This document shows positions 7,046 to 43,645 of a stretch of DNA of 64,000 bases, piece after piece; within the stretch, counting starts at the first letter, position 1, and every line of letters begins with the position of its first letter. The translations under genes were made by a program, and so were the position numbers. Below the pieces are notes generated by a model. The model was not told the DNA's origin, made no database searches, and saw only the letters and a list, made by a program, of their open reading frames with translations. The DNA is from Chthonomonadaceae bacterium (GTDB lineage Bacteria > Armatimonadota > Chthonomonadetes > Chthonomonadales > Chthonomonadaceae). The DNA is taken from positions 23,526-87,525 of the forward strand of contig DASRGZ010000096.1 of the NCBI GenBank assembly GCA_035650735.1, in the 5' to 3' direction.

Positions 7046-7124
7046 GTAATCCCTCCCAACGGTGTGGACGTATCTCCTCAGTAGCAAGCTGCTTGAGATT
7101 GATCCACACGACTGGGAGTGTCTA
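7046..7124 (+). mobile_element. MITE-like repeat family 1, copy A (~79 bp), flanked by ~10-bp direct repeats CGCTTAAAGG
   Basis: Near-identical to segments at ~18051-18127, ~25305-25390 and ~43557-43645. Imperfect terminal inverted repeats GTAGACACTCCCAGCCGTGTG / CACACCGTTGGGAGGGATTAC. Confidence 0.6.
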
Positions 7125-7165
7125 CCGCTTAAAGGGCGTGCCCTGCTCTACTTGTCGGGGAAACT

Positions 7166-9076
7166 ATGTTCTGGAATACGTTGCTTGAGCGAGCGCCTGT
7201 CCTCTCCGTCCAACGAACCGAAGCCACCCCGCCGCAAGCGTCGACGAGTGCGCGCGGGCACAAGCTGCTTGTTGCGGCCCTGCTGCTCCTTATGTTCGCG
7301 CAGGGCCTCTGGAACTGTCTGAGCGCCTCCGCCACCTGGGATGAGGCGCTCTATGTCGGCGTTGGCCGTTATCTTCTGCTGACCGGCAGCTACGACTTCG
7401 CCCATATACCAGCGCTGATCTACCACCCGGTCGGCTCTTACTATCTCAACAGCCTCTTCCTGCTGTTCCTGCCGCTGCCCGCCGACACGCTCCAGATCCC
7501 TGCGGACGACTTTTACACCAACGTCACGGCCCACCGGCTGCTGTTCCATTCCGGCTACGCCCCGGAGACCATCCTGCTGCTGGCCCGGCTGCCCATCTTA
7601 CTCCAGTCGCTGCTGCTGGGCTGGCTGGTTTACTGCTTTGCCGCGCGTCTCTTCGGGCCGCGCGCCGGCCTGGTGGCGCTGGCAGCGCTCGCCTTCGAGC
7701 CTAATCTGCTGGCCCATTCCTGCCTGGTGACCACCGACTCCAGCGTCACGGTCTGGGTCTTTGCCACGGCCTACGCCTACTGGCTCTATCTGCGCGCTCC
7801 CTCCACGCGCCGCCTGCTGGTCACTGCCCTCTGCCTGGGGCTGGCCGCGCTGGCGAAAGTGACCGGCCCGGCGCTCTGCCTGATCCTCCTGGCGGGGATG
7901 TACCTGGCCCGACGTAAGGAGGCGCGCAGGACAGGCGCGGCCCCGCCTACCGGGAGCGCCGGTCTGCCACAACCGGAAAGCGCAGAACGAGTTAGAATGG
8001 CCTCGCCTGCCGGGACCGCCGACGCACCGCGCGGCCCGGAGCCGACAGACGCAAAGCCTCTCCATTCGCCTGCCGCCGTAGGTGACAATGGGCACAGCGC
8101 GCCGACGACCGGCGTCTTCCCCGCCGAGACGGCAGTGCCGCCGCTCGCTCACTTCCTTTGGATGGGGATTGCCCTGCTGCTGATGATCTGGGCGGCGTAT
8201 GGGTTCAATCTGGGCATCCATCATCCCTCGCGCCTGATGAAGCTTCCCGGCGGTCCCTATCTCTATATGCTGCGCACGGTAATACAGGGCGGACACCGCG
8301 CGGGGTTCTCCTACCTCTTCGGGCACTTCTATCCGCACGGCCTGCGCGCCTACTGCTCTGCCGTCTTTCTGATCAAGACGCCGCTGCCGCTGCTGCTGCT
8401 GTTGCTGCTCACGCTGCTCTTCTGGCGGCGGCTGCCGCACGCCGACCGAGCGGCGGAGGTCGGCCTGGCTCTGGGCTTCCTGATACCGCTGCTCCTAAGC
8501 CTGCAAGATACCGTCAACCTGGGCCTGCGCTACATTCTGCCGCTCTATCCGTTCCTCTGCGTCTTCGTCAGCCGCCTGGCCGCGCTGCGGCGCCTTCCTC
8601 AACCGGCCCGGCTGCGCTGGGCGCCCGCCGCGCTCACGGCGCTGCTCTGCTGGCAGGCCGTCGAAAGCGTGCTCGCCTGCCCCAATCACCTGGCCTATTT
8701 CAATACCCTCTTCGCTCTCCCCGCCGCGCACAAGTACCGCTACCTGGTCGAGTCCAACCTGGATTGGGGCCAAGAGCTGCTGGCGCTGCGCGCCTATATG
8801 CGGGCGCATCACTTGGAACAGATCGCGCTGCAATATTACGGCAGCGTGGACCCGGCGGAATACGGCATCCGCTACACGCCCGCACGCCCTGACTCCACCG
8901 GCTACGTCGCTATCGGCGCGACCAACCTGGCCGGGATATTCCTGCCTCAAATCGGCAAATTCCATTACGTCTCCGACGATCCTGCACGGCTGGCAGCCTT
9001 TCGTAACCAGCAGCCCCTTGCGGTGCTAAACGGCGGCGCTATGCTCGTCTACTACGTGCCGCCCTCGGATCGCTGA
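7166..9076 (+). CDS. GT-C superfamily membrane glycosyltransferase (PMT/ArnT-like, GT39/GT83-like) with a low-complexity Pro/Ala-rich loop
   Basis: 636 aa with many predicted transmembrane helices. First periplasmic loop carries 'WDEALYVGVGRY' (the DE motif of PMT/ArnT-type GT-C enzymes). C-terminal soluble domain present. Confidence 0.6.
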   Translation: MFWNTLLERAPVLSVQRTEATPPQASTSARGHKLLVAALLLLMFAQGLWNCLSASATWDEALYVGVGRYLLLTGSYDFAHIPALIYHPVGSYYLNSLFLLFLPLPADTLQIPADDFYTNVTAHRLLFHSGYAPETILLLARLPILLQSLLLGWLVYCFAARLFGPRAGLVALAALAFEPNLLAHSCLVTTDSSVTVWVFATAYAYWLYLRAPSTRRLLVTALCLGLAALAKVTGPALCLILLAGMYLARRKEARRTGAAPPTGSAGLPQPESAERVRMASPAGTADAPRGPEPTDAKPLHSPAAVGDNGHSAPTTGVFPAETAVPPLAHFLWMGIALLLMIWAAYGFNLGIHHPSRLMKLPGGPYLYMLRTVIQGGHRAGFSYLFGHFYPHGLRAYCSAVFLIKTPLPLLLLLLLTLLFWRRLPHADRAAEVGLALGFLIPLLLSLQDTVNLGLRYILPLYPFLCVFVSRLAALRRLPQPARLRWAPAALTALLCWQAVESVLACPNHLAYFNTLFALPAAHKYRYLVESNLDWGQELLALRAYMRAHHLEQIALQYYGSVDPAEYGIRYTPARPDSTGYVAIGATNLAGIFLPQIGKFHYVSDDPARLAAFRNQQPLAVLNGGAMLVYYVPPSDR

Positions 9077-9367
9077 TGACCCCGATTTGCCGGAGCGAGT
9101 TTGCCTATCCTATTCTGCTTTCTCGCCGCAGTCCGCCTGATAAGCGAAGGAACACAACTGGACGTTGCTTCGTCTGATGCGCGATGGCACCCGGAGTTGC
9201 TCTGGGTGAGGATTCAAGCTTTTGTCTGGCAGGCATTGCACTGGCCCTAATGTCCTTTGCCAATCTCCCGGGGCATTCCGAGGCGAGAGAACGAATCAAA
9301 CAGGGAAGCCGAGGGCATCAGGGCGGTGAGGATCGAAACCCACAGGCGCAACCAGAGGGAGAGAACT

Positions 9368-9772
9368 ATGGTAACAAAGCGATCAGGCTGGCTGACTCTG
9401 GCGGTTGTGTTGGGAGTGGCGGGACTGGTGGGCTGCAGCCAGGAAACCCAGGTAGAGGCGCCGCCCGGCGGCACCAGCACAACCGTGGTCAGAACCCCAC
9501 GCAGCCCTTCCAGCTCCAGTTCGACCAGCACCAGCACCCACACCACGACGAGCACGTCGAAAACTACGGGGACGACGTCGGGCACAACATCCTCCGGCGG
9601 AACCACAACCACTCCCGGTACGACCGGCTCTAGCGAAACGAGCACTGGAACCACCGGCACGAGCACCGGGACTACCGGCACCACCGGAACGGGCACCAAC
9701 ACGACCACCGGAGGGACGCAATCCACGACGACGACTCAGTCCACCAGCACCAGCGCCCGCACCAAGCGGTAG
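9368..9772 (+). CDS. Lipoprotein with Ser/Thr/Gly-rich low-complexity tail
   Basis: Signal peptide with lipobox 'LVGC', then >90 aa of T/S/G repeats. RBS GGGAG lies before the ATG at 9368. Confidence 0.55.
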   Translation: MVTKRSGWLTLAVVLGVAGLVGCSQETQVEAPPGGTSTTVVRTPRSPSSSSSTSTSTHTTTSTSKTTGTTSGTTSSGGTTTTPGTTGSSETSTGTTGTSTGTTGTTGTGTNTTTGGTQSTTTTQSTSTSARTKR

Positions 9773-9801
9773 CTACAGCAACCTAAATAAGGCGGTAAAC
9801 A

Positions 9802-9843
9802 GGTAAGCCGGGCACAGAACGTACCCGGCTTACTCCTATTCCC
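9802..9843 (+). terminator. Putative intrinsic terminator after the lipoprotein gene
   Basis: Stem GTAAGCCGGG/CCCGGCTTAC (10 bp) with 11-nt loop, followed by TCCTATTCCCC. Confidence 0.35.
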
Positions 9844-10005
9844 CTAGCGTCCTACGCAGGCATGGTTGCCTCACGAAGGCCCCCTCTCAAACCACGATTA
9901 AGGCAGCGATACTCTATCCCCTGCGCCCCAATCGGAGATGATTGTCCGGTTCCTATGGCAGCAACTCCTGTTGTCATGTGGTTGCTGTCTGTGGCGCAGG
10001 AACGA

Positions 10006-10686
10006 CTACGGACGCGAGCCGACACGGCGGCGGCGAAGCAGAGCGGCCCCGGTTAGACCCAGGCTGGCCAAAAGGGCATAGGCGCCGGGTTCGGGAACGG
10101 AAGAAGGAGGGGGCGCGTTCGTCAGGACGTTGCTGAAGACGAAGTTCTCATCAAAGTAGTTGAAGTCCGAGCCCGGAAACGGCAGGTCCTCAAAGGCCAC
10201 GTAGGTGCCCGCCGGTACGCCGGGGAAGAAGGTCTGTTGAGAAGACGTACCTGTATAGAATGTCGAGTACACGTGGTTGTGCCCAAGGGTCTCACCCGGG
10301 TTATCGTAAGACACGTTCAGGCTCGGATCGGAAAAGGCATCCTCGCCCAGGGTGAGGTTATGCAGGACGAAGATCAGCGAATCTCCTGCGTTGACGTGAC
10401 CAAAATTGTATGGCTGTCCAATGGAGCTGCTATGGTTGTCCAGGCCGAATCCGCCCTGGGCAACCCCGTTGACGAGCACGCCCAACTGGTTGTCGAAACT
10501 GGCCGTGCTACCGGCGAAGTAGGCGATTAAGTCGCCGGAAGAGGCGGCAGTGAACGAATAGGTTTCCGGATTGGGGGTGCCTCGATCGGGATACGGGATC
10601 GGGCCTTGTGCGTTGGCCGCCTGCACCGAGGCGAGGCCGAGTACACCTGCAAGAACGGCGGCGGCAAAGAGGTGTCGAGCATTCAT
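10006..10686 (-). CDS. PEP-CTERM domain secreted protein (exosortase substrate)
   Basis: N-terminal signal peptide 'MNARHLFAAAVLAGVLGLASVQAANA'. C-terminus '...VPEPGAYALLASLGLTGAALLRRRRVGSRP' has a PEP motif, a hydrophobic span and an Arg cluster. Confidence 0.6.
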   Translation of the reverse strand: MNARHLFAAAVLAGVLGLASVQAANAQGPIPYPDRGTPNPETYSFTAASSGDLIAYFAGSTASFDNQLGVLVNGVAQGGFGLDNHSSSIGQPYNFGHVNAGDSLIFVLHNLTLGEDAFSDPSLNVSYDNPGETLGHNHVYSTFYTGTSSQQTFFPGVPAGTYVAFEDLPFPGSDFNYFDENFVFSNVLTNAPPPSSVPEPGAYALLASLGLTGAALLRRRRVGSRP

Positions 10687-11023
10687 GTCTGTTTCCCTTT
10701 CTCATCACGACAATGAGGTTGTCTCTCAAGCGTGTCGTTACGGCAAGAGGATCTCTGGCCGCGCGTGTCCCTGCTTGAGATAGAAGGAGGATTACTGCAA
10801 CTGCCTCTGAGAACACCGACCTCAACGTATGTGTACAACCCTCGTTTTAGTCTGCAACTTTAACCTTGTGCAAATTCCATGCCAACAAGCATGGATTAAG
10901 GTATAGGCGAACAATAAATTGGACCGAGAATTTGTTCTCCGTCCGGCTTTGACCATGGATTATCCCGCATCCACTCTGCAAAATGCGGGCTGACGCATAA
11001 GCCGCTGATCGCTAGGGCCACCC

Positions 11024-12235
11024 TCAGGGCGTGCCGCGCGCCGCCGCCTTGATGCTAGCCCGCCGCGCCGCGAGCGCCACGGAAACCGGCGGCTCACCCT
11101 GCCATAGCCGATAAAGCTGCACCAGCGTTACCACCGCCAGCGCCGTTAGGGGAGCCGCAAACAGCACGCCCCACAGGCCCCCGACCTCAAATCCGGCCAG
11201 CAGAATAAACAAGACCAACACCTCATGCAGCCCCAGCGCCACGCCAACCAGGCGCGGATACAGCACTTTTGAGCCGAATTCGTTGATGAGAAAGAAGAGG
11301 ATCACGACAATAATGGCGCGCGTGAGCGGAGTCAGGCCGTGACCGGCGGGCGTCAACAGCGCGGCAATCACCGCCGGGAAAGCGCCGATGAACGGCCCGA
11401 CCACCGGTATCAGCGCCGCGAACACAACAAAGATCCCGATCAACAGCCAGAGCCGCACGCCCAGCAAGCCGCAGGCAACCGCCGCCGCCACGCCCAGCGC
11501 CAGGGCCAGCAGCAGTTGGCCGCGCACAAAGCCGCCCAGGACGCGGCTCACGTCCGTCTCCCACGCTACAGCGTAGGGCAACAGGCGCTCCGGTAAGGCG
11601 GCATTCACCCGCTCCCGCATCTCCTGGCTGTAGAGCAGGAAGTAGAGAGCGATCAGCACCACGAGCAGCCCTTCCACAACCGAGCGCGATAGAGCCGCCA
11701 GCGTGCTTACCGTGCTATGCGCCACCACTTCGCCCCAGGACTTGACATTGGAGGGCGGGTTGCTCAGATACTGCTCCAGGTTGACGTGAATACTGCGTGC
11801 GGCCAGCCAGGCATCCGTATCTGCCAGCAGTTGCCGTCCTCGCTGCTCGATGGCGGCGTGATCGCGGACGAGCACCTGCACCTGATGGGTCAGTTGCGCG
11901 CTCAAGAGCACGCCGCCGAGAAAAAACAGCCCAAACAGCACGCCGAAGACGATCAGCACGCCGGCCCAGCGCGGATGTTGCCCCCGCCGGGCAAGCCCGC
12001 GCGCCCGCTCCACCAGAGGGTCGAAGGCATAGGCCAGCAGCCCGCCCAGCGCAAACAGCAGCACCGTATGATGGATGGCTGCCAGCAGGCGCACGGTCAC
12101 CGCTACGGCAGCCACCAGCAGCAGGCAGGTCGCCACCACGATGAGCAGTCGCAGCCACCGATGCATGGCAATGGTTTCGCTCAGGTGGCCGCGATCCTCG
12201 GAAGCGTCCGGCGGCGTTGATTTGATAGGTGGCAT
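11024..12235 (-). CDS. AI-2E family transporter (PerM/YhhT-like, UPF0118)
   Basis: Polytopic membrane protein with family-typical blocks 'LIALYFLLYSQEMRERV' and 'GPFIGAFPAVIAALL'. Start may be the internal Met (MHRWLR). Confidence 0.75.
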   Translation of the reverse strand: MPPIKSTPPDASEDRGHLSETIAMHRWLRLLIVVATCLLLVAAVAVTVRLLAAIHHTVLLFALGGLLAYAFDPLVERARGLARRGQHPRWAGVLIVFGVLFGLFFLGGVLLSAQLTHQVQVLVRDHAAIEQRGRQLLADTDAWLAARSIHVNLEQYLSNPPSNVKSWGEVVAHSTVSTLAALSRSVVEGLLVVLIALYFLLYSQEMRERVNAALPERLLPYAVAWETDVSRVLGGFVRGQLLLALALGVAAAVACGLLGVRLWLLIGIFVVFAALIPVVGPFIGAFPAVIAALLTPAGHGLTPLTRAIIVVILFFLINEFGSKVLYPRLVGVALGLHEVLVLFILLAGFEVGGLWGVLFAAPLTALAVVTLVQLYRLWQGEPPVSVALAARRASIKAAARGTP

Positions 12236-12316
12236 GCGTTTTCCCCAAGTGGCCGTGCCGCCAAAGCGCGTAGAATCTCCCTCTCGGACAACTACGCACT
12301 TTGAGCGTCTAGTCGC

Positions 12317-13264: not shown

Positions 13265-13329
13265 CTCTCTTTTCGTCCTCATTCGCCCTGGATGGGCGTC
13301 TTTGATAGTTCTCGTCCAGGGGTAACTTC

Positions 13330-15080: not shown

Positions 15081-15099
15081 CCATATAAGTATACTAATA

Positions 15100-15140: not shown

Positions 15141-15144
15141 CTTT

Positions 15145-15185: not shown

Positions 15186-15216
15186 GCCTGCCCACTTCTC
15201 AAAACACTCGAAAGCG

Positions 15217-17867: not shown

Positions 17868-18180
17868 TGAAGGCAATTTAGACAGGATTAACGGGATTAA
17901 CCGGATTTCAACCACTCAATAAAACAGGGCTTCTCTGAATTTGGTAGATAACTCAAGTTGCTACCTTGCCTCTTCGAGAAGGCAAACGGTGATGCAAAAG
18001 CCGGTTTCCAGAGCGATTCTCTCTCAAACGTGTTCCTAGGTAGCAACTTGGGTTAGATGCTCCCAGCCGTGTGGATCAATCTCACGCAGCCTGCTGAGGA
18101 GATACGTCAACACCGTTGGGAGGGATTACCCTGAATTTGTGTAATCCTGTAAATCCTGCAAAATCCTGTTCATCCTGTTG
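17868..18180. mobile_element. Composite, nested repeat region: (AGGATTWA)n arms of repeat family 3 enclose family-2 and family-1 MITE-like copies
   Basis: Left arm 'agacaggattaacgggattaaccggattt' and right arm 'aatcctgtaaatcctgcaaaatcctgttcatcctg' are inverted. The interior holds the 115-bp element 17944-18058 and the family-1 copy ~18051-18127. The direct repeat CTGAATTTG flanks the inserted block. Confidence 0.55.
17944..18058. mobile_element. MITE-like repeat family 2, copy 1 (115 bp), 17-bp near-perfect terminal inverted repeats
   Basis: 100% identical to 57367-57481. Terminal inverted repeats AACTCAAGTTGCTACCT / AGGTAGCAACTTGGGTT, with TAGAT on both flanks. Internal hairpin TTGCCTCTTCGAGAAGGCAA. 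Confidence 0.55.
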
Positions 18181-20823: not shown

Positions 20824-20824
20824 C

Positions 20825-23188: not shown

Positions 23189-24214
23189 ATGCGGATTGCA
23201 GTAGATGCCATGGGAGGCGACAGGGGGCCGGAAGAGGTCGTGCGCGGCGTCGTGGCTGCGGCGCACGGCAGCGACACCCATTTCTCGCTGGTGGGCGACC
23301 CGGCGATCCTGGAATCCGCGCTCGCCCATGTCCGTCCCCGACCAGACAACGTCGAGATCATGGCCGCGACGGAGGTCATCGGAATGGGCGAGCAGCCGAC
23401 GGTAGCTTTCAAGCGCAAGCCCAACGCCTCAATGGTCGTGGCGGCACGCATGGTCAAGGAGAAGCAGGCGGATGCGCTCGTCTCCATCGGCAACACCGGG
23501 GCGGTGATGGCCGTCTCCCTGCTGACCCTGGGCCGCATCAAGGGCATTGATCGCCCGGCGATTGCCGCCCTGCTGCCCTCGCTTTCGGGCACGGTGGTGC
23601 TGCTGGATGCCGGGGCGACCGTGGATTGCGATCCGAACAACCTGTTCGAGTTCGCCATTATGGGCGGCGTTTTCGCGCAGACGGTGGTGGGAGTGGACAG
23701 GCCGCGCGTGGGCCTGCTCTCGAACGGCGAGGAGTCCAACAAGGGCAATGAGCTGGTCAAGCGCACGCACCTGCTGCTCCACCAGACGATGAACGACGCC
23801 GGCCCATGTACGTTTATCGGCAACGTGGAGGGGCGCGATATCTTTCGGGGCGGCGTGGATGTCGTCGTCTGCGACGGGTTTATCGGCAATGTGGTTCTCA
23901 AGACCGGCGAGGGCGTGGCGGAGATGGTGCTGCGCCTGATCAAGGAGGAATTGAGCCGCCACATCTGGATGAAGCCCTTTGTCGCGCCTCTGATGCCCGC
24001 GCTGCGCCGCCTGCATCGGCGGATTGACTACGCGGAGCGCGGCGGCGCCCCGCTGCTGGGGGTCAACGGCATCTGCATCATCGGGCACGGCCGTTCCGAT
24101 GCCTATGCCATTACCAACGCCTGCCGTGCCGCCGAACGCGCCATCCAGCACAATATCATCGAGACGATTCGCCAGCGCGTCTGCGATATGCCGACGCCGC
24201 CTCCGCCCTTATAA
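23189..24214 (+). CDS. plsX: Phosphate acyltransferase PlsX
   Basis: 'MRIAVDAMGGDRGPEEVV' and full-length PlsX architecture. Confidence 0.9.
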   Translation: MRIAVDAMGGDRGPEEVVRGVVAAAHGSDTHFSLVGDPAILESALAHVRPRPDNVEIMAATEVIGMGEQPTVAFKRKPNASMVVAARMVKEKQADALVSIGNTGAVMAVSLLTLGRIKGIDRPAIAALLPSLSGTVVLLDAGATVDCDPNNLFEFAIMGGVFAQTVVGVDRPRVGLLSNGEESNKGNELVKRTHLLLHQTMNDAGPCTFIGNVEGRDIFRGGVDVVVCDGFIGNVVLKTGEGVAEMVLRLIKEELSRHIWMKPFVAPLMPALRRLHRRIDYAERGGAPLLGVNGICIIGHGRSDAYAITNACRAAERAIQHNIIETIRQRVCDMPTPPPPL

Positions 24215-24228: not shown

Positions 24229-25284
24229 ATGGCCTCCAAACCGACGCCGCTTTCCGCCAAAGAGGAGAGCGCCTATGCCAGCCCGGTAAGCAGCGTCCTC
24301 CATGCCGGGATTTTTGGCCTGGGAATGTGCATTCCCGAACGGGTCCTCACCAACGACGAACTCTCTCAGAGCGTAGAGACCAGCGATGAATGGATCACGG
24401 CGCGCACCGGCATCCGTGAGCGGCGGGTCACCGATGCAGAGAGTGCCACTTCGGACCTGGCGGTTGTCGCCGCCGAGCGCGCGCTGGCAGATGCAGGCAT
24501 GGACGCCGGCGGCCTCGACCTCATCCTCTGCGCCACGACCTCCGGGGATTATATCTGGCCTGCCACCGCCTGCGTCATCCAGGATCGTATCGGCGCCAGG
24601 CGCGCGGCGGCCTTTGATCTGAGCGCAGCCTGCTCCGGGTTCTGCTATGCGCTGGCGACGGCAGATGGGTTTATCCGCAGCGGGGCCATGCAGCGTATCC
24701 TGGTCATCGGCGCGGATACGCTCTCCAAGCAGCTTGACTGGCAGGACCGCGCGACCTGTATTCTGTTTGGCGACGGCGCGGGCGCGGCAGTCCTGGCTCC
24801 CTGCGCGCCCGGCGAAGGTATTCTGGCTTCCTCGCTCGGTGCGGACGGCAGCGGGGTCGAGGCGGTCTGGATACCGGGCGGGGGCACGCGCGCTCCTCTC
24901 ACGCCGGAGACGCTGGAACAGAAGGCCAACTGCATTCGGATGAAGGGCAAGGAGGTCTATCGCTTCGCCGTTGAGGTCGTGCCGCAAGTGGTCACGGAGG
25001 CGCTCAAGCGCGCCTGCCTGCGCCCCTGCGATGTTAGCCTCCTCATCATGCACCAGGCCAATATCCGCATTATCCAGGCGGCGGCGGAACGCCTGGGCCT
25101 TCCGAACGAAAAGGTCTTTGTCAACGTAGACCGCTACGGAAATACCTCCGCCGCGTCCGTGCCCATCGCGCTGGCCGAAGCCGCGCAGCAGGGACGCCTG
25201 CGGTATGGCGATATCGTCGTGACGGTCGGGTTCGGCGCGGGCCTGACCTGGGGCGCCAACGTCATCCGCTGGAACAGAAGATAA
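24229..25284 (+). CDS. fabH: 3-oxoacyl-ACP synthase III
   Basis: Active-site Cys context 'AACSGFCYAL' and C-terminal His/Asn blocks. Gene order plsX-fabH-fabD-fabG-acpP-fabF. Confidence 0.9.
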   Translation: MASKPTPLSAKEESAYASPVSSVLHAGIFGLGMCIPERVLTNDELSQSVETSDEWITARTGIRERRVTDAESATSDLAVVAAERALADAGMDAGGLDLILCATTSGDYIWPATACVIQDRIGARRAAAFDLSAACSGFCYALATADGFIRSGAMQRILVIGADTLSKQLDWQDRATCILFGDGAGAAVLAPCAPGEGILASSLGADGSGVEAVWIPGGGTRAPLTPETLEQKANCIRMKGKEVYRFAVEVVPQVVTEALKRACLRPCDVSLLIMHQANIRIIQAAAERLGLPNEKVFVNVDRYGNTSAASVPIALAEAAQQGRLRYGDIVVTVGFGAGLTWGANVIRWNRR

Positions 25285-25304
25285 GCATCCAGAAAATGAT
25301 AACC

Positions 25305-25390
25305 GGGTAATCCCTCCCAATGGTGTTGACGTATCTCCTCAGCAGCAGGCTGCGTGAGATTGATCCACACGGCTGGGAGTGTCTACCTGA
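25305..25390 (+). mobile_element. MITE-like repeat family 1, copy C, flanked by direct repeat TGATAACCG
   Basis: GGTAATCCCTCCCAATGGTGTTGACGTATCTCCTCAGCAGCAGGCTGCGTGAGATTGATCCACACGGCTGGGAGTGTCTAC, with 9-bp flanking duplications. Confidence 0.6.
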
Positions 25391-25621
25391 TAACCGTTAC
25401 TCTCAAAACAATGCCCTACCGGGCGACCGCAGATCTGGATAAGCATCCAGAAAATGATAACCGTTACCTTTCCGGGAGTGGGCATCATAGGCGTACCCTG
25501 GTATATACTGGCCCTGGCCCTGTTGTTGCTGTTGAGCGGGATCGGGGCGATTGCATGGCTCCTTCGCGCCGTGCGCGGCTAGCTGCCTGTCGGCGGTAAG
25601 CATTGAGGAAGTGAGCGGGAA

Positions 25622-26589: not shown

Positions 26590-26731
26590 CTTCCAACAGG
26601 ATTTTGCAGGATTTGCAGGATTAAGACCAAAGACTAAAGCCTTCCCGTCCACTAAGTTAAGAGACATAGGAACTTGGTTGGGTAGGTAGGTTTTAGAAAT
26701 CCTGTTTAATCCTGCATAATCCTGTTGGAAT
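26590..26731. mobile_element. Repeat family 3 element (~140 bp) with 11-bp perfect terminal inverted repeats CCAACAGGATT/AATCCTGTTGG and tandem (AGGATTWR) 8-9-mer arms
   Basis: 'caggattttgcaggatttgcaggattaag' ... 'aatcctgtttaatcctgcataatcctgttgg'. Related arms occur at 5640-5680, 17873-17913 and 18141-18178. Confidence 0.5.
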
Positions 26732-35970: not shown

Positions 35971-35975
35971 AGCTC

Positions 35976-37620: not shown

Positions 37621-38172
37621 TTTTTACTCTCCTTCTTTGGTTCCTTGCTCCTGATTTCAAAGTGCGGGCGTAGGATGTCTCCGTGCCTCTACTGCCGACA
37701 GGGAGGCGAGGTAGGGGTATCCACACGGGCACAAACCTGTGGGAAAATGGCCCCAGCTTGCCAGAGGCACCGCAAGAGGGTGAAAAAGACCGAAACGCGG
37801 GAGTGGTGGATACAGCGCGTCCCGTTTTCCGTTATTGCAAGAATTGTGCCAGAATGCGCGTTATCAGGCTCGAAGGCCGGTTTTCTTGCGTAGAGGCGTT
37901 CCTCTAGAGTCCTTCTGCGCCGAAACTCCCCTCCCTTCGGCAGATTGATCATTGCCTTCCAATAGAGTATAATAGGGGCAGAATACTGTAGGTATTCACA
38001 GTTTTGCTTGTCTTTGATTGTACTGTTTAGGCGCGATTCGGTAGAAGCGGTGATTTAGATTGGTCTATGGTGGCAGCCGGGGCGATAGGACGCCCGGCCT
38101 TTTGTGCTGTCCGGGCACTCTGGGCCTTCCTGAATTGCGTTTTTTGTTAGGCAACCAACAGGAGAATAGTGC

Positions 38173-41100
38173 ATGAGCCATGACGAACTCCCGCCGCCCG
38201 CTGAGCCTTCGGAAACTGGAGAGAAGGCTGCGGAGACTGCGCGGGAAGCGTCCTCTACGGAGGCTCCGCCTGCGGTCGGTAGGGGCCGCCGTCGCCCGCG
38301 AGCGGCGGGCACGGCTGAGTCCCCTGCGGCTTCCGAACAGGAGAGCGCTGCGCGCGCCCCCCGCCGCCGCAGGAAAGCCGCCGCGACCGCGGCCGCCTCC
38401 GACGTCACGCCTCCCGTAGAGGCATCCCTCGGCGAGGCTTCCGGCGCGAACGCGCCGGAAGTCGCCGCACCCCAGCAAGCTCCAGAGCAAGCTCCCGCCA
38501 GACGGACGCGCCGCCGCGCGGCCCCGTCCCCATCTGCCGTCGAAACGCCGCCCGTTGTCGAAACCGCGCCTGCCCCTGACGCGCCCGTTGTGGAAGGAGT
38601 AGGGCCCGCTATCGAGGCGCCGTCGGTTGCCCTGCCGCCCATACCCGCAGCGGAAGGCGCCGCAGGGCCGGTCGAAGTGGCTGCCGCGCCGGCAGCTGCG
38701 CCAGTGGAAGCGCCTGCCAGAGCGACGCGCCGCCGCGGGCGCAAAGCGGCTGCTCCGGCCCCCGAGTCCGCTGCTTTGGAGCAAGCCGTTGCCGCACCTG
38801 CGGAGGCAGCGCCGCAGCCCAGCCCGTCCTTGTTGAATGTTGAACAGGCCATTCCCGCGCCTGCGGAAGCGGAAGAACAGGCCGGTGCCGCCGCACCCGC
38901 CGAGGCCGTTCCCGTAAAACCTGAGCGGCGCCGTGGCGGTCGCCGCCGCGCGGCGGCACTGCCGCCCGTGGAAGCGCCGGCTCCCGAAGCGGTCGCCGCG
39001 CCAGAGGCCGCCGTAGAACCAGATGCTGCCTCGCTCCCTGCGCCGTCCGCTGAAATCCCGACGGCCGTCCCGTCAGAAGCAGTATCCGTCACGCCGGAGG
39101 TGATCGAGCCGCCGACGCGTGCGCGCCGCGGTCGCCGTGAGCGCGCTGCCCACCGCGGCGCGACGCGGGTTACCCCGGTGGAAGAGGCCGCGGCCACCGT
39201 CGAAGCCATACCCGCGCCGGAGCCGGTTGTCATCGAAGAGAAGGTGGACCGCACCGTCGGCGGGCATCTGGTCTGGCGGCACGGCATGCCAGAGATCTAT
39301 ATCCACGGCGTCGCCTATCCGCCCGTCCTCTTCTTCGGCAATATGGAGGGCACGCGCAACCGGCAGCGCGTCCTCTCGGAGGTGCGCCGCGCCGCCCGCG
39401 CCGGGGTGCATCTGCATTCGACGCTGGTGGAGCTGACCTGTCCGCTGGCCGAACACAGCGAGGCGCTCGACGAGATTGATGAGCTGCTGCGCGCCATCCT
39501 GGAAGCCGATCCTCAAGGCTATATTATGCCGCGCGTCGTCTTTGTTCCTGCACGCGGCTGGAAACGGGAATATCCCACTGAGATCGCCACCTATGCCGAC
39601 GGCACCACCGGCGATCCCTCCATCACCAGCGAGCGCTTCTGGCAGGAGGCGGAGCATTCGCTCGTCACCCTCATCGAGCACCTGCGCCTGACCGAGTGGG
39701 GCCGGCACATCTTCGGCTACCACCTGGAGCGGGGCGAGTGGTTCCAGCCCGCCGATCAAGGCTACGATCGCAGCATGGCCAACCGGGATGCCTTCCGCGA
39801 TTGGCTGCGCGAAAAGTACAAGAACAACCTGGTCGCCCTGCGCGCCGCCTGGTACGATGGCGATGTGCAGTTCCATACCGCCGAGATACCGCCCCTGATC
39901 GCCAAGCCCAACCCGAATCTGGCCTTTTATGAGCCGAGACGGCAGCGGCGGTATATTGATTTCAACGAGTTCACCGCGGAGAGCACGGCCCGGCGGCTGA
40001 TTCAGTTGGCGCGCGTGATCAAGAAGGCGACGAGCAACCAGGCCATCGTCTCGGTCTGCTACGGCTACACGCTGGAGTTCGGGCATCCCTACAGCGGGCA
40101 CCTGGCCCTGGGAATGCTGCTCTCGACGCAGGCCATCAACCTGATCTGCGGCCCCCCCTCCTACCGCGACCGCAAGCCGGGCGGGGCCGCCTCCCTGCCG
40201 GCGCCCGTCGACTCGCTGCCCCTGCACGGCAAGCTCTGGCTCTCGGAGGATGACACCAAAACCTACCTGGCCCCGGCCCAGCAGGAGCCGGGCGACTTCA
40301 ACCCGCGCCTGGGAGACCGCTTCCTGACTGAGCAGGCGCAGGCCCGCACGATGGGCCATGCCCTGACGCATCTGACCGGCGTGGATTGGATGGACCTCTG
40401 GGGCGAGGGCTGGCTGGATGATGAGGCTATCTGGGAGCGGCTGGGCGCCTTCACCGCGCGCTACGCCGCCTTCCTCAAGCAGCACGAGCGGCCGCAGGCC
40501 CCGGAAGTGATCGCCCTGATCGATGAGAAAAGCCTGCTGCACGTCCAGCGTGGGGAAGCCTTCTTTCGCAAGCTGACCAACGGCCTGCGCGACTCGCTGC
40601 AGCGCGCGGGCATCTCTTACGGCACCTACCTCCAGAGCGATCTGCTGGCCAGGGACTTTCCGACCGGCGCCAAGCTCTACCTGTTCCTGACGCCCTACCG
40701 CCTCACGTCGGAGCAGCGCGCCGCCATCAAGGAGAAGCTGCAGCGCGATGGCAAAACGCTGGCCTGGCTCTACGCGCCCGGCACCTGCGACGAGCATCCG
40801 AGCATGAGCGGCATGATGGAAGAGACGGCGCACGGAGCCATCGGCATTACGCTGCGGCAGCAGGAGTGGAACTCCGAGGTCGGGTCGCGGGTCATCGAGC
40901 CCTACCATCCGATCACCGAGCGCCTGCCCAGCCGCGAGTACGGCACGCGCGAGCGACTCAACCCTTCGTTCTATGTGGATGACTCTGGAGCCAAAACGCT
41001 GGCGGAGTACCAGGGCTCGGGCCTACCCTCGCTGGCCGTCCGGGACTTCGGGACGTGGAAATCGGTGTTCGTGGGCGATCCCGTCCTGCCGTTGGAACTG

Positions 41101-41832
41101 CTGCGGGGCATCTGCCGCTATGCGGGCGTGCATCTGTGGTTGGCGCATGGTGACGACGTGGTGATGGTCGGCAACGGCTGGGGGATGATCCACGCTACCA
41201 AAGACGGCCACCGCACGCTGCGCCTGCCCACCTGCACCGGCCTCTACGATGTCGTCGAGCGCCGGCTGGTTGCCGACGAGGTCTGCGAGTACCGCTACTT
41301 CCAGCGCGCCGGGACGACGCGCCTGTTCTGCGTGGGCACGGCGGAGCATTTCCTGAGGCTGGGCCTGCCTAACGTCACCCTGCCCGGCCCGGGACGCGCG
41401 CGCATCGTGCTGGACAGGTCGCAGGAGAAGGAGACAACGCGCCGGGAGACCGGTCGGGAGGCTGGCCGAGAGACCGGCCCTACGGTGCCGGGTCCTCTGC
41501 GCGCGGATCTGGAAACGCTGGAGGCGGTGCTGTCTCTGGACCTCCAGGTCCTCGAAGCCTCCGAGGTGGAAGACCTGGACGGGCTAGATACCATCGCTGA
41601 AGAGGCGCTGCCCGAGGCCGAGTCGCTAGAGATAACGGCTTCCGAGGCGGCTGCCGGAGGAGAGGTCGTCGCCAATGGGCGCCGCCGCCGTCGTCGGGGC
41701 GGGCGGGGACGCTGGCGCAAGCGCACAGGCAGCCTGTCCGAGGGCGCGGAGGAAGCCGCTTCCCCGGAGGCTGCGGAGCCGCCGCCTGCGGAACCACCGG
41801 CCTATGAGGGCGGCTCGGAAGCGGGCGAGTAG
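38173..41832 (+). CDS. Large cytoplasmic protein (1219 aa): ~330-aa Ala/Pro/Glu-rich disordered N-terminus punctuated by Arg clusters, central GH42-like (beta-galactosidase family 42) domains, Arg-rich C-terminal tail
   Basis: Central region matches GH42 landmarks ('AFRDWLREKYKNNLVALRAAWYDGDVQFHTAEIPP' resembles the GH42 'F..WL..KY.tl..LN.aW.t.fws' block, and a trimerisation-domain-like 'EVIALIDEKS...AKLYLFLTPY'). No signal peptide. Recurring RRRxRKAAA motifs. Confidence 0.5.
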   Translation: MSHDELPPPAEPSETGEKAAETAREASSTEAPPAVGRGRRRPRAAGTAESPAASEQESAARAPRRRRKAAATAAASDVTPPVEASLGEASGANAPEVAAPQQAPEQAPARRTRRRAAPSPSAVETPPVVETAPAPDAPVVEGVGPAIEAPSVALPPIPAAEGAAGPVEVAAAPAAAPVEAPARATRRRGRKAAAPAPESAALEQAVAAPAEAAPQPSPSLLNVEQAIPAPAEAEEQAGAAAPAEAVPVKPERRRGGRRRAAALPPVEAPAPEAVAAPEAAVEPDAASLPAPSAEIPTAVPSEAVSVTPEVIEPPTRARRGRRERAAHRGATRVTPVEEAAATVEAIPAPEPVVIEEKVDRTVGGHLVWRHGMPEIYIHGVAYPPVLFFGNMEGTRNRQRVLSEVRRAARAGVHLHSTLVELTCPLAEHSEALDEIDELLRAILEADPQGYIMPRVVFVPARGWKREYPTEIATYADGTTGDPSITSERFWQEAEHSLVTLIEHLRLTEWGRHIFGYHLERGEWFQPADQGYDRSMANRDAFRDWLREKYKNNLVALRAAWYDGDVQFHTAEIPPLIAKPNPNLAFYEPRRQRRYIDFNEFTAESTARRLIQLARVIKKATSNQAIVSVCYGYTLEFGHPYSGHLALGMLLSTQAINLICGPPSYRDRKPGGAASLPAPVDSLPLHGKLWLSEDDTKTYLAPAQQEPGDFNPRLGDRFLTEQAQARTMGHALTHLTGVDWMDLWGEGWLDDEAIWERLGAFTARYAAFLKQHERPQAPEVIALIDEKSLLHVQRGEAFFRKLTNGLRDSLQRAGISYGTYLQSDLLARDFPTGAKLYLFLTPYRLTSEQRAAIKEKLQRDGKTLAWLYAPGTCDEHPSMSGMMEETAHGAIGITLRQQEWNSEVGSRVIEPYHPITERLPSREYGTRERLNPSFYVDDSGAKTLAEYQGSGLPSLAVRDFGTWKSVFVGDPVLPLELLRGICRYAGVHLWLAHGDDVVMVGNGWGMIHATKDGHRTLRLPTCTGLYDVVERRLVADEVCEYRYFQRAGTTRLFCVGTAEHFLRLGLPNVTLPGPGRARIVLDRSQEKETTRRETGREAGRETGPTVPGPLRADLETLEAVLSLDLQVLEASEVEDLDGLDTIAEEALPEAESLEITASEAAAGGEVVANGRRRRRRGGRGRWRKRTGSLSEGAEEAASPEAAEPPPAEPPAYEGGSEAGE

Positions 41833-41837
41833 CGGCC

Positions 41838-42062
41838 ATGAAAACGCCATTCTCCTCCAGGCAGATGGTGGCTTTTAAGATAGGGGCGCGCGCCCGCAAG
41901 TTCGCGCTGGAGGGCTGCCCCATCGAAGGCTACGAGCTTCTGTATAACTCCCTTGCCGAAGCCGAGCGCCTCGACCCGGAGCTGCACGCGCTGCTCCAGG
42001 CGGAACTGGAGAAGTACGAGCGGCGCCTTGCCGCCCTGGATGAAGAGGGAGAAGAGGAGTAG
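41838..42062 (+). CDS. Small acidic helical protein (74 aa), 6 nt downstream of the GH42-like gene
   Basis: ORF in tight linkage. C-terminus 'LAALDEEGEEE'. Confidence 0.35.
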   Translation: MKTPFSSRQMVAFKIGARARKFALEGCPIEGYELLYNSLAEAERLDPELHALLQAELEKYERRLAALDEEGEEE

Positions 42063-42088
42063 GGTTTTACTCAGGTAGGGAGAAAGCC

Positions 42089-42994
42089 ATGTGTACTCCG
42101 CTGTTTGCTGTCGTCTCTGCGGCCCTGATCGCCGCTGGGTTGGCGTGCGCAACGCCGCGCGCAGGGGCCGCTGCCGACGATGCCGGGGCCAAATCGGCGC
42201 TGAAGCCGGAGGTGGCGGCGCTGATTAACCAGGCTACGGCGACCTATAAGAACCTCCAGTCCTATCAGCATACGGCGGTCATGGCGGCGGTGGGCAAGGG
42301 GCCGCAGGGCGACTTTCGCAGCGAAGTTACCTACACGCTCGCGCTGGAGCGCCCGAACAAGTTCGCCTATCGCGTGGACCAACTGCCGGAGGACGCCGTG
42401 CCGGTCTCTGAGGCGGTCTGCGATGGCAAAACCTTCTTCAATTACCGGCTGATCGAGGGGCACGGCAAGCAGTACATCAAAACCCCGGCGCCGGCCACTT
42501 ACAAAGAGATCAACATCGTGGACGATGTGCTCTTTGAGCCGCTGGCGACTTACGTGATTGCGCTGATGCTGCAGGGGGACGCGCTGGCCGATAAAGACGT
42601 GCGGGCGGCGCTGGAGAAGGCGACGCTGCGCCCGAACGTGATGGAGGGCGGAAAGACCTGGCAGGTGCTTGTCGTGCCGTTTGGCCCGAATGAGGCGCCC
42701 TACGAGTTCTATTTTGATTCTGAGACGCACCGCCTGGCCCGGGCGGTAACGCGCCCGCCCCGGCGCGAGGGCCAGCGCTTCTATATCGAATCCCTCACCG
42801 AAACCGTGGACAACGTCAGGCTCAACAAGCCGGTAGATGCCTCCGTGTTCCAGTATGCGCCCCCGGAGGACGCCCGGGAAGTCAAGAAGTTCTCCACGCC
42901 CGGCGAACAACCGCCCGGCACGGCGCGACGAGATCCACGCGGGGGCAGGGCGGTCCGGGCGCTCTCCTCTAGCGGCTGGCCATCCACCGGATAA
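42089..42994 (+). CDS. Putative lipoprotein (LolA-like/DUF2092-like fold suspected)
   Basis: Signal peptide with 'LAC' lipobox. No catalytic motifs. Confidence 0.45.
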   Translation: MCTPLFAVVSAALIAAGLACATPRAGAAADDAGAKSALKPEVAALINQATATYKNLQSYQHTAVMAAVGKGPQGDFRSEVTYTLALERPNKFAYRVDQLPEDAVPVSEAVCDGKTFFNYRLIEGHGKQYIKTPAPATYKEINIVDDVLFEPLATYVIALMLQGDALADKDVRAALEKATLRPNVMEGGKTWQVLVVPFGPNEAPYEFYFDSETHRLARAVTRPPRREGQRFYIESLTETVDNVRLNKPVDASVFQYAPPEDAREVKKFSTPGEQPPGTARRDPRGGRAVRALSSSGWPSTG

Positions 42995-43076
42995 AAATGT
43001 AGTAACCCAGGACCAGACAAAGAATAATCGCGATTATCGCTCCGATCATTGCCATTGGCGTAAATCTCCGTGCTGT

Positions 43077-43532
43077 CTATACTGGCACGCCCTCAGAAGC
43101 CTCCAGATCAATCAGGGCCAGACCCGATTGCGCATCGTATTTGCGCTGTAAGTGCCTGGGTTCCTCCGTCAGCACCACTTCCAGGGTCGGGCGAACGTGC
43201 GCCTCCAGGAGATGCCCACCGTAAGCCGTGCCGTCCGACTTGGCGACGACGACATGGGCATGCACCTGCGGCTGGCCGTCTTTGAGAGCGATATCTCCTA
43301 CCAGGGAGACGACCTCCACCTGCTCCTGGATGGGGATGGGCTTGTACTCCTTCTTCTGCCACTCAAAGTAGGCCAGGACGACATCCTGGAACGCGCCGAT
43401 GGCCGTAAAGTGGCTGCCGCTCAACTGCTGCCTCCTGGCAAAATCGCGTAATCCTGCCATCACCTCATCGCCCGTCTCAAAAATGAGCGCGTAGGTCTTC
43501 TCCGCCTGGTTGGCGAGTAGCCTGGCTTGCAT
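43077..43532 (-). CDS. PPC/DUF296 domain protein (PCC-type)
   Basis: 'TYALIFETGDEVMAGLRDFARRQQL...VVSLVGDIA...AHVVVAKSDGTAYGGHL' are DUF296 blocks. ATG at 43532 is preceded by GGGGGAAAGG. The track's N-terminal extension is encoded by a MITE. Confidence 0.6.
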   Translation of the reverse strand: MQARLLANQAEKTYALIFETGDEVMAGLRDFARRQQLSGSHFTAIGAFQDVVLAYFEWQKKEYKPIPIQEQVEVVSLVGDIALKDGQPQVHAHVVVAKSDGTAYGGHLLEAHVRPTLEVVLTEEPRHLQRKYDAQSGLALIDLEASEGVPV

Positions 43533-43556
43533 GGCCTTTCCCCCGGTGCGCGTGTT

Positions 43557-43645
43557 GATAGGTAGACACTCCCAGCCGTGTGGATCAATCTCACGCAGCC
43601 TGCTGCTGAGGAGATACGTCAACACCGTTGGGAGGGATTACCTGT
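43557..43645 (-). mobile_element. MITE-like repeat family 1, copy D, flanked by 9-bp target-site duplication TGTTGATAG
   Basis: GTAGACACTCCCAGCCGTGTGGATCAATCTCACGCAGCCTGCTGCTGAGGAGATACGTCAACACCGTTGGGAGGGATTACC between perfect direct repeats. Confidence 0.6.

Follow-up and report, generated by a model that had tools for sequence, protein, structure and literature searches.

An 82-bp family of repeats, very probably a non-autonomous DNA transposon, in a Chthonomonadaceae population

The DNA analyzed here, a stretch of 64,000 nucleotides (the window), carries at four separate places a short repeat, fam1. The question is whether fam1 is a mobile element or a sequence kept for its effect on nearby genes and, if mobile, which enzyme moves it.

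Structure of fam1 and its copies in the window

The preliminary description had located four copies in the window; all were found, exactly four in number, and their coordinates could be set exactly (Table 1). The fam1 consensus is 82 bp long (GGTAATCCCTCCC…GGGAGTGTCTACC) and consists of two 33-bp arms and a 16-nt loop, with almost no core. The arms are imperfect terminal inverted repeats (TIRs) which agree at 24/33 positions, and the TIR motifs first quoted were correct. The tips are GGTAATC and GGTAGAC, with GG...CC at the boundaries, and fam1-type ends are of the form GGTAATCCCTCCCAAC... Arm matches in the window are 8 versus 1.4 expected, and the total of 9 matches was reached by 0/100 shuffles; the ninth (50791-50806, 2 mismatches) lies outside any fam1 copy. 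The repeat folds into a hairpin of -32 to -42 kcal/mol (z -3.3 to -5.2), which is a by-product of the TIRs. No transposase gene is present, reading frames spanning 26-27 codons only. Two frames are fully open, and the peptide noticed earlier is confirmed: read in frame +2, the consensus gives *SLPTVWTYLLSSRLREIDPHGWECL.

Copy 2 is made up of two parts (17943-17950 and 18060-18130, together 79 bp, with a 3-nt deletion in the loop), set apart by a member of a second MITE family, fam2, unrelated to fam1 and inserted 8 nt from the copy 2 terminus. The copy had been taken as the only one lacking a target-site duplication (TSD), because fam2 is nested in its terminus; once fam2 is removed, CTGAATTT is restored on both sides. 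A second apparent exception, at metagenomic site L076, likewise shows a perfect 8-mer after removal of a nested fam2. The two MITE families are seen nesting in each other's termini.

Table 1. Coordinates of fam1 copies, duplications and associated features (window positions, except for the last line)
Feature	Position	Strand	Length	Remarks
DegT-type aminotransferase gene	5691-6815			flanks copy 1
fam1 copy 1 (c1)	7045-7126	+	82 bp	
TSD of copy 1	7037-7044 and 7127-7134		8 bp	GCTTAAAG
PMT_2 glycosyltransferase gene	7166-9076			flanks copy 1
fam1 copy 2 (c2)	17943-18130	-		interrupted by nested fam2
TSD of copy 2	17935-17942 and 18131-18138		8 bp	CTGAATTT
fam2 MITE nested in copy 2	17951-18053	+	103 bp	TIR ACTCAAGTTGCTACC...GGTAGCAACTTGGGT
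TSD of nested fam2	17945-17950 and 18054-18059		6 bp	TAGATA / TAGATG
fam1 copy 3 (c3)	25306-25387	+	82 bp	fabH-fabD spacer
TSD of copy 3	25297-25305 and 25388-25396		9 bp	TGATAACCG
Paralogous empty site of copy 3	25438-25467	+	30 bp	intact string GATAAGCATCCAGAAAATGATAACCGTTAC
PCC/DUF296 gene	43077-43532			public call; flanks copy 4
fam1 copy 4 (c4)	43561-43642	-	82 bp	
TSD of copy 4	43553-43560 and 43643-43650		8 bp	TGTTGATA
DUF1275 gene	~43739-44542			public call; flanks copy 4
IS1-family element	L038, 2259-3077		819 bp	tips GGGAGTG, perfect 8-bp TSD

Copy number, duplications and precise insertion

A metagenome scan returned 94 fam1 copies, which occupy 78 distinct sites and almost all belong to a single population of Chthonomonadaceae (Armatimonadota); the number of sites is a lower bound, as the contig of the window was not itself among those returned. 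The host is an uncultured soil bacterium of this family, proteins encoded at the flanks bearing the NCBI name 'Chthonomonadaceae bacterium', and its DNA carries roughly one fam1 copy per 16-23 kb. Copies are homogeneous: 91/94 are exactly 82 bp long, differences from the consensus range from 0 to 4, and pairs of copies are on average 97.8% identical. Two master sequences are found, one at 26 sites and the other at 16. The terminal 20-mer matched once among 185,579 species genomes, in an alphaproteobacterial promoter region in which only 20-22 nt agree. This match is due to chance, and six metagenome matches from other samples were dismissed on the same grounds. The occurrence of the family is restricted to one population, and the near-identity of its members marks the amplification as recent.

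TSDs are perfect 8-mers at 58 of the 78 sites, 9 bp long at five and 7 bp long at one; three more sites feature 8-mers with one mismatch. The preliminary description was right about the duplications but not about their length, given as 9-10 bp when it is 8 bp at c1 and c4 and 9 bp at c3: two of the repeats reported, CGCTTAAAGG and TGTTGATAG, ran 1-2 bases into the GG...CC tips. The duplicated DNA has a GC content of 43%, versus 63% for the genome, and the logo of the flanks reveals weak preferences only.

Insertion is precise, as seen at two paralogous empty sites. The 30-bp string split by copy 3 (window positions 25281-25400 were compared) is found intact 150 bp downstream of the split one, and comparison of L054 with L033 yields a second case, a tnpB gene being split in L054 by fam1 between positions 35 and 39 of the OrfB_IS605 profile. 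Overlapping contigs yielded no empty site that was orthologous or polymorphic. The spacer holding copy 1 has identical length in three independent assemblies, copy 3 is present in every assembly spanning the fabH-fabD spacer, and copy 4 is fixed in four assemblies, while two short-read contigs stop 25 nt inside it. Exact-protein look-ups in all independent assemblies accordingly detected no presence/absence polymorphism, the mark of current mobility, at c1, c3 and c4; the near-identity of the copies argues for recent, not current, activity.

One might suspect segmental duplication or faulty assembly instead of insertion, since all the sequences come from metagenome assemblies and fam1 is a point at which short-read contigs break. 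Logan contigs were indeed seen to reach fam1 sites and break inside the element. Yet JGI, ENA and NCBI assemblies, which are independent, show the same insertions with spacers of identical length, the flanks are unique at the 78 sites, and identity ends exactly at the 82-bp boundaries. The preliminary description had itself raised segmental duplication of the flanks; what is found are short, site-specific repeats, mismatched flank pairs agreeing in 1/5852 cases only. The probability left to this explanation is practically nil.

Elements of the REP/BIME type, spread by a RAYT, or palindrome-associated elements spread by the TnpA of IS200/IS605, resemble fam1 in being short, palindromic, intergenic and abundant, and IS200/IS605-type tnpB genes occur in the population. 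These systems, however, insert beside a fixed short target and produce no TSD. Exact 7-9-bp duplications of unrelated sequence at 64/78 sites, and flanks with weak preferences only, refute this origin, to which we assign next to no probability; the sole tnpB seen is moreover a gene into which fam1 has inserted, and not its partner.

The best explanation, to which we give high confidence, is that fam1 is a non-autonomous DNA transposon (MITE), and the MITE-like nature first proposed is strongly supported by the 78 sites, the 8-bp TSDs, the two empty sites and the disrupted tnpB. The family features several traits expected of MITEs: small size with no transposase gene, TIRs, TSDs fixed in length but not in sequence, a large number of copies scattered over unrelated loci and precise empty sites. 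To judge from the anatomy of TIRs and TSDs, a DDE transposase supplied in trans would bind both arms, cut at the GG...CC tips, and join the element to a target cut with an 8-bp stagger, occasionally of 9 or 7 bp; repair of the gaps would generate the flanking direct repeats.

Gene context

fam1 resides in AT-rich intergenic DNA by preference. Intergenic sites are 76/78, and the two doubtful ones are 86 and 203 nt away from the furthest upstream codon that could serve as a start. The repeat could alternatively be a selected cis-regulatory or RNA element (leader hairpin, terminator, attenuator or small RNA) that owes its spread to its usefulness, as the very stable hairpin and the position of all four window copies, 20-235 nt from a gene start, might suggest. 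The closeness to gene starts pointed out in the preliminary description was a small-sample impression: the gene ends beside the 78 sites are 64 starts (median distance 166 nt) versus 59 stops (median distance 174 nt). Orientation relative to co-directional genes is unbiased as well (16 versus 15). Since neither a preference for starts nor an orientation bias is seen, a regulatory motif is unsupported; on these figures, and with unrelated genes as neighbors, the copies do not belong to a conserved gene-leader motif such as the earlier reading had considered.

Further data speak against selection on the hairpin. Genes neighboring the window copies are unrelated to one another, a search of Rfam returned no family, and no promoter-like or terminator-like consensus was found wholly within any fam1 copy. 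The commonest variant, G22T (34/75 sites), breaks a stem pair, compensation being seen in 1/7 changes at the partner position. Confinement to one population adds to this, and a regulatory element of this kind appears very improbable. fam1 gives no sign of a host function, and the consequences of its presence, namely stable transcript hairpins, breaks in assemblies and spurious ORFs, are probably incidental. The spurious ORFs had been anticipated, and one of 54 aa, which spans the element, is indeed among the JGI calls. The false N-terminal extension predicted for the PCC/DUF296 gene is, by contrast, limited to a mechanical list of longest ORFs, the start chosen by public callers giving a protein of 151 aa.

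With its duplication, a fam1 insertion adds 82 + 8 = 90 bp, or 30 codons, and has two open frames, in which it resembles Rickettsia palindromic elements (RPEs). RPEs typically sit inside genes and are read through in frame, whereas fam1 is nearly always intergenic and, in the single clear case of insertion into a gene, cuts that gene short. An RPE-like in-frame coding insertion was therefore dismissed.

The transposase and related elements

The preliminary description had suggested an IS5, IS1182 or IS4-like parent. Direct repeats are 9-12 bp long in IS4 groups, and 2-4 or 9 bp in IS5 groups (ISfinder tables, in part PMC10425158; in part general knowledge). As fam1 TSDs are not 9-10 but 8 bp long (58/64 of the sites with perfect TSDs), this parentage does not follow. 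The IS1 family is favored instead; its direct repeats are 8-9 bp long (PMC10425158, Table 8), in agreement with the 8-9-bp repeats of fam1.

An IS1-family InsAB' enzyme is our best guess for the transposase, with about even chances, because an intact IS1-family element is present in this population, has an 8-bp TSD, and bears ends modestly resembling the fam1 arms. The element (L038 in Table 1) encodes an InsA zinc ribbon (27.8 bits versus a cut-off of 26.1), an A7 slippery/frameshift site, and an InsB with a DDE_Tnp_IS1 domain and the D, D, E motifs; its contig also harbors three fam1 copies. Its homologues are 146, and those named are IS1 family transposase or InsB. The tips of the L038 element and of four relatives from other samples (L100-L103) are GGGAGTG, which fits GGnnnTG, and L100 has an 8-bp TSD as well. 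Boundaries set at a 6-bp repeat, GTTGTG, with tips AGGGAG..., were dropped in favor of the GGGAGTG tips, which give a perfect 8-mer.

In tip-anchored comparisons with inverted repeats (IRs) of the IS1 subgroup, 5/1000 shuffles did as well as the fam1 arms against the six closest IRs, and 28/1000 against all ten; for fam2 arms, used as a control, figures were 804/1000 and 646/1000, and for E. coli IS1 7/1000. The likeness of the fam1 arms to these IRs is modest, and falls short of that of E. coli IS1. The first 12 nt of what we take to be the E. coli IS1 IRR match the fam1 arm at 10/12 positions; for the whole arm set against that presumed E. coli IR alone the likeness is non-significant (162/2000 shuffles). 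It was the resemblance to E. coli IS1 that led, via tblastn, to the L038 element. Both fam1 and the IS1 family have 5'-GG tips and 8-9-bp TSDs, and an inner arm motif, GTGTGGAT in fam1 and GTGCGGAT/ATGCGGAT in the L038-type element, is placed almost equally far from the tip in both. Unlike IS1, fam1 has no insA or insB, its arms are only modestly similar, and its tips feature GG but not TG, and hence depart from the GGnnnTG hallmark. The 13-mer IS tip is also reversed, its best exact match in fam1 being GGGAGTGTCTACC, at positions 70-82 in opposite polarity. An IS1-type transposase may read the dyad tip GGnAG-nnn-CTnCC either way, or the MITEs may offer outward IS ends, but we regard this as improbable; if outward ends were real, two MITEs could mobilize the host DNA in between, like an inside-out composite transposon.

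The MITE may instead be moved by another family with 8-bp TSDs and GG tips (IS6/IS26, ISL3, IS66, IS256 or IS1595), an appreciable though less likely option. Neither trait is unique to IS1, since IS6/IS26 elements have GGnnnTG-type ends and 8-bp TSDs (PMC6807381; PMC10425158). Besides the misfit of the fam1 tips to GGnnnTG, the ends of the L038 element are ~50-70% similar to the fam1 arms, and a cognate element was not found. The search with relaxed TIRs (up to 5 mismatches in 21 nt) over ~840 kb of population DNA revealed no autonomous element with fam1 termini, and no autonomous partner was found among the bounded multi-copy segments of the same DNA. Where fam1 arms lie at contig ends, MITE sequence follows, and no fam1-type ends were found among the four IS1 relatives L100-L103.

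Against another family stand the arm comparisons, in which fam1 and not fam2 beats the shuffles, and the finding that the only gene for an 8-bp-TSD transposase in the ~840 kb is of the IS1 family, though less than the full library of transposase profiles was used and the absence of other families is weak evidence. TnpB and an IS630-like HTH fragment, also seen there, make no 8-bp TSDs. Candidates rejected as transposases were L016, an HD-GYP/GAF protein; L029, L021 and L045, for which no family was found; L026, whose sole match is an IS630-type HTH fragment, with a TSD that would not fit; and L054, the tnpB disrupted by fam1.

fam1 is a new family of an ordinary kind of element, and leaves the picture of how MITEs work unchanged. 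Like the prokaryotic MITEs Correia (Neisseria), RUP (Streptococcus), Nezha (cyanobacteria) and QMITEs (Coxiella) (PMC10969869), it is small and non-coding, with a TIR hairpin, short TSDs and dispersed, mostly intergenic copies, and the dependence of those elements on a transposase in trans is proposed for fam1 likewise. QMITE2, described with 7-9-bp direct repeats and 23-29-bp TIRs, is similar in anatomy. fam1 differs in sequence so far as compared, BLAST against plasmid records having returned, as the Rfam search, no meaningful match, and at 82 bp lies at the small end of prokaryotic MITEs. In the literature that could be searched, no report of MITEs was found for the phylum Armatimonadota.

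In this lineage fam1 and fam2 break short-read assemblies and seed spurious ORFs; masking fam1 would improve both the contiguity and the annotation of MAGs, and its near-identical copies could serve as strain markers. The family is evidence of a recent burst of MITEs in a phylum whose mobile elements have barely been described, and together with the L038-type IS1-family element forms a candidate IS/MITE pair open to testing.

Sequence, spread and target-site duplications of fam1

The four window regions for which the preliminary description had reported an ~80-bp repeat were read and aligned, which bore the repeat out. The unit is the 82-bp sequence GGTAATCCCTCCCAAYGGTGTKGACGTATCTCCTCAGCAGCAGGCTGCGTGAGATTGATCCACACGRCTGGGAGTGTCTACC (fam1), and identity is sharply lost beyond both ends. 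A degenerate arm pattern gave eight arm matches in the window, two per copy, and one unrelated match with two mismatches. As 1.4 matches are expected, and a total of nine was reached in 0 of 100 shuffles, the window contains exactly four fam1 copies. Of the 33 positions in each terminal repeat, 24 are complementary, and therefore a single long hairpin is predicted from either strand (-32 to -42 kcal/mol; z -3.3 to -5.2), the outcome of the RNA folding suggested earlier. The peptide noticed in all copies is frame +2 of the consensus. No Rfam family matches fam1, and no tRNA or other Rfam family was found at gathering threshold in the whole 64-kb window. From about its position 23526, ENA contig ERZ27279673 k141_496566 matches the window, which is also overlapped by the JGI contigs Ga0070741_10002423 and Ga0070741_10001411.

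Coordinates of repeats and of the IS1-family element
Feature	Sequence	Position	Strand	Remark
fam1 copy 1	window	7045-7126	+	from alignment
fam1 copy 2	window	17943-18130	-	interrupted
fam1 copy 3	window	25306-25387	+	from alignment
fam1 copy 4	window	43561-43642	-	from alignment
fam2	window	17951-18053		8 nt inside terminus of fam1 copy 2
fam2	window	57365-57467		
fam2	L007, L030, L038, L051, L066, L069, L072, L076, L077, L079			metagenome loci
AATCCYGT array	window	5651-5667		
AATCCYGT array	window	17882-17898		
AATCCYGT array	window	18143-18169		
AATCCYGT array	window	26596-26725		
AATCCYGT array	window	27544		
AATCCYGT array	window	53538		
IS1-family element	L038	2259-3077		819 bp; insA, A7 frameshift site, insB

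The terminal 20-mer of fam1 had one match in 185,579 species-representative genomes, dismissed as due to chance, because just 20-22 nt agree and the match falls in a conserved promoter region of alphaproteobacteria. The same 20-mer hit 85 metagenome stretches. Six, from other samples, hold no fam1 element; the other 79 trace to the related samples Ga0209810, Ga0070739 and Ga0070741. Together with the window, these 79 yield 94 full copies, of which 91 measure exactly 82 bp; they occupy 78 distinct sites. Both totals are lower bounds, since the JGI counterpart of the window, Ga0070741_10002423, is absent from the stretches returned. On contigs with matches, copies occur roughly every 16-23 kb, and a genome of a few megabases would therefore house a few hundred. 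The NCBI labels of the FabH and FabD proteins of the window, 'MAG TPA ... Chthonomonadaceae bacterium', place the host among uncultured Armatimonadota. The population is present in JGI 3300005529 and its sister samples, in ENA ERZ27279673 and in NCBI GCA_0370244xx/5xx.

With fam1 bounded as GG...CC, a perfect direct repeat of 8 bp was found at 58 of the 78 sites, of 9 bp at five and of 7 bp at one. Three more sites feature 8-mers with one mismatch, two are off by a single-base indel among consecutive Ts, and three are truncated at a locus or contig end. Left flanks agreed with the right flanks of other sites in 1 of 5852 pairs. The duplication is thus 8 bp long: the direct repeats first described are real, their length of 9-10 bp is not. 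The repeats CGCTTAAAGG and TGTTGATAG include bases shared with the GG/CC tips, the true 8-mers being GCTTAAAG and TGTTGATA, and the sole genuine 9-mer in the window is that of copy 3 (TGATAACCG). Duplicated 8-mers average 43% GC vs. 63% in the genome, and exhibit weak positional preferences.

Interrupted targets, nested elements and age

Copy 2 has an odd terminus and apparently lacks a duplication, as a consequence of the insertion of a second MITE-like family, unrelated to fam1. The 103-bp core of this family (fam2) is delimited by ACTCAAGTTGCTACC...GGTAGCAACTTGGGT, and at the 12 distinct sites seen its duplications are 6 bp long, of the form TA-nn-TA (TAGATA, TATCTA, TACCTA, TAGGTA, TAATTA). 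Duplications of this length are uncommon, and fam2 could be assigned no partner transposase. Upon removal of fam2 and of one of its duplications, copy 2 reads directly as CTGAATTT-GGTAGAT...GATTACC-CTGAATTT; a fam1 site at locus L076 is resolved in the same way, with duplication CAGGATTA. Four independent sites (window copy 2, L069, L076 and L077) have fam2 next to or within a fam1 terminus, because TA/GGTA and GGTAGATA fit its target.

Insertion is directly attested by interrupted and intact versions of the same sequence, and by a disrupted gene. A 30-bp string, GATAAGCATCCAGAAAATGATAACCGTTAC, occurs twice in direct orientation in the fabH-fabD spacer. One occurrence (25438-25467) is intact; the other, about 150 bp upstream (25281-25306 / 25388-25400), is interrupted by fam1 copy 3, which is flanked by TGATAACCG at either end. 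The string could be an operator for a regulator of fatty-acid synthesis, or a small local duplication. Likewise, GGTTGCTGCGGCTTCAGCCGCCCGAAAA is uninterrupted at locus L054, and in an 81%-identical paralogue at L033 82 bp are found between GGTTGCTGCGGCT and CTGCGGCTTGAGCCGCCCGAAAA. Paralogous segments of ~320-520 bp, ~81% identical, reside at L033 11188-11501, L054 7278-7577 and L078 405-718, and as a further pair at L011 3931-4443 and L036 96-611. The L033/L054 segment includes tandem ~23-nt units (CCCTTGCAGTCCGTTGAGCG...) followed by a terminator-like hairpin, AACCCGCGCAGGCGGGTTTT; it may represent a repeated gene for a small non-coding RNA.

Of the 78 sites just one is clearly genic, and there fam1 has hit a gene of another mobile element, the tnpB at L054 79-1197 (OrfB_IS605 and Cas12f1-like TNB domains), split between OrfB_IS605 profile positions 35 and 39 by a fam1 copy with duplication GACGACCA.

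Each copy shows 0-4 differences from the consensus over 82 positions. As mean pairwise identity is 97.8%, and two sequences, told apart solely by a G or a T at position 22, make up 26 and 16 of the sites, the pattern is that of a recent burst from one or two source copies. No sign of current activity emerged: no polymorphic site was found among overlapping contigs, and copies 1, 3 and 4 have the same spacer lengths in every independent assembly spanning them (JGI, ENA, NCBI). A diverged ~80-bp element with fam1-like ends, GGCAGACATCCCCAGTGGTGT...CCACCCAGGGGAGGGATTACC, resides at L025 425-505, which suggests an older subfamily in the same genome.

Gene context and effects on annotation

Sites were judged after in-silico excision of fam1, by a crude gene filter, the strong GC3 signal of real genes. 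According to this filter 76 of the 78 sites fall between genes. For the remaining two, the distance to the furthest upstream start codon possible is 86 and 203 nt, and the ORFs around them are probably over-extended. The closeness to gene starts reported initially was a small-sample impression: flanking gene ends are 64 starts (median distance 166 nt) vs. 59 stops (174 nt). Where both neighboring genes run in the same direction, 16 copies are oriented with the genes and 15 against. Neither a start preference nor an orientation bias was found. No promoter-like or terminator-like consensus resides wholly within copies 1-3, the copies scanned (one terminator-like site overlaps the end of copy 3 and its flank), and the commonest variant, G22T, disrupts a stem pair with no compensation. 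On account of position, orientation, consensus scan and G22T, a reading as a gene-leader or RNA motif finds no support. Single copies could still act locally, as perhaps copy 4, whose -42 kcal/mol hairpin lies 12-20 nt upstream of the start codon of the PCC/DUF296 gene, in what looks like the operon spacer between the DUF1275 and PCC genes at 43532-43739.

The fam1 insert plus duplication (82 + 8 = 90 bp) amounts to a whole 30 codons, two frames being open throughout; given the intergenic location of the sites, this has no visible consequence. Many ORFs of a mechanical list start within fam1, including a 182-aa version of the PCC gene, which public callers start at 151 aa. The spurious ORF calls anticipated earlier do occur, as a 54-aa JGI ORF spanning copy 4 (L105 3443-3607); the false N-terminal extension of the PCC protein is confined to the mechanical list. 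Fragmentary contigs feature partial ORFs of 27-42 aa in fam1, and several short-read contigs terminate within it.

Short intergenic arrays of AATCCYGT units, spaced 9-10 nt and often ending in CTAAAA, were found in the window and at many loci. The 11 window matches compare with 2.4 expected (0 of 100 shuffles as high). Twelve of the 78 fam1 sites are within 40 nt of an array, vs. 2.4 +/- 1.8 for random intergenic positions, and the unit resembles the fam1 tip GGTAATCC. The arrays may represent a third repeat family, a favored target, or a binding array for a regulator.

IS1-family elements as possible mobilizers of fam1

Searches (tblastn) with E. coli InsA and InsB matched L038 (Ga0209810_1000666), a contig that also carries three fam1 copies, one of them 260 bp from the element matched. 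The element, an IS1-family insertion sequence, appears intact: the InsA-type zinc ribbon and HTH score 27.8 bits (Pfam cut-off 26.1), the A7 slippery run is at the expected place, the InsB part has recognizable D, D and E motifs (DDE_Tnp_IS1 22.9 bits, partial ORF), and the tips, GGGAGTG, are flanked by a perfect 8-bp duplication, TCACAACA. The reconstructed InsAB' has 146 homologues, the named ones being IS1 family transposase or InsB; as the closest is only 56% identical, the IS may be undescribed. Four relatives from other samples have the common tip GGGAGTG(T/G)C(T/A)AA, and one (L100) an exact 8-bp duplication too. At L101 200-250 (Logan SRR33708435) another IS end lies directly upstream of an IS1-family element and faces it across a 7-nt spacer (TTAGGCACTCCC-GAAAAAA-GGGGAGTGGCG); abutted ends are the arrangement of IS tandem or circle junctions.

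IS1 elements have 8-9 bp duplications and GGnnnTG ends (ISfinder table reproduced in PMC10425158). The fam1 arm and the E. coli IS1 IRR agree in 10 of their first 12 bases; over the whole arm the match is not significant (162/2000). In tip-anchored alignments fam1 arms bear a modest likeness to the IRs of the IS1 subgroup, above that of shuffled arms, 5 of 1000 shuffles reaching the fam1 score against the six closest IRs and 28 of 1000 against all ten. The same test gave 7/1000 for E. coli IS1, and 804/1000 and 646/1000 for the fam2 control. The best pair is GGTAGACACTCCCAGCCGTGTGGAT of fam1 with GGGAGTGTCTACCA-TCGTGCGGAT of L101. On these likenesses an IS1-family enzyme would be the most likely mobilizer, an assignment to which we give an even chance. 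Yet fam1 tips do not fit GGnnnTG, no cognate element was found in the sequences searched, and another family making 8-bp duplications may be the mobilizer instead; IS6/IS26 elements share the IS1 end motif and duplicate 8 bp (PMC6807381). The conserved IS tip is found in fam1 as an exact 11-13-mer, GGGAGTGTCTACC, at positions 70-82 in opposite polarity, tip-to-inside in the IS being inside-to-tip in fam1. The tip 13-mer is a quasi-palindrome (GGnAG-nnn-CTnCC), normal polarity matching at 8/13 positions, and this symmetry may partly explain the flipped match.

The ORF at L026 5089-5598 is restricted to the HTH_23/HTH_29/HTH_32 part of an IS630-type transposase; this probable IS fragment was rejected as a partner since that family makes TA duplications.

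Neither an IS-sized relative or other cognate autonomous partner, in ~840 kb of population DNA (relaxed TIR search and bounded multi-copy segment search), nor an insertion polymorphism, among overlapping contigs and independent assemblies, was found for fam1. The family has every structural feature of a MITE, and is typical of prokaryotic MITEs in anatomy and behavior, including the QMITEs of Coxiella (DRs of 7-9 bp, TIRs of 23-29 bp; PMC10969869). The searchable literature holds nothing on MITEs in Chthonomonas. Fam1 is a new MITE family, not a new kind of element, in a phylum for which that literature describes no MITE family.
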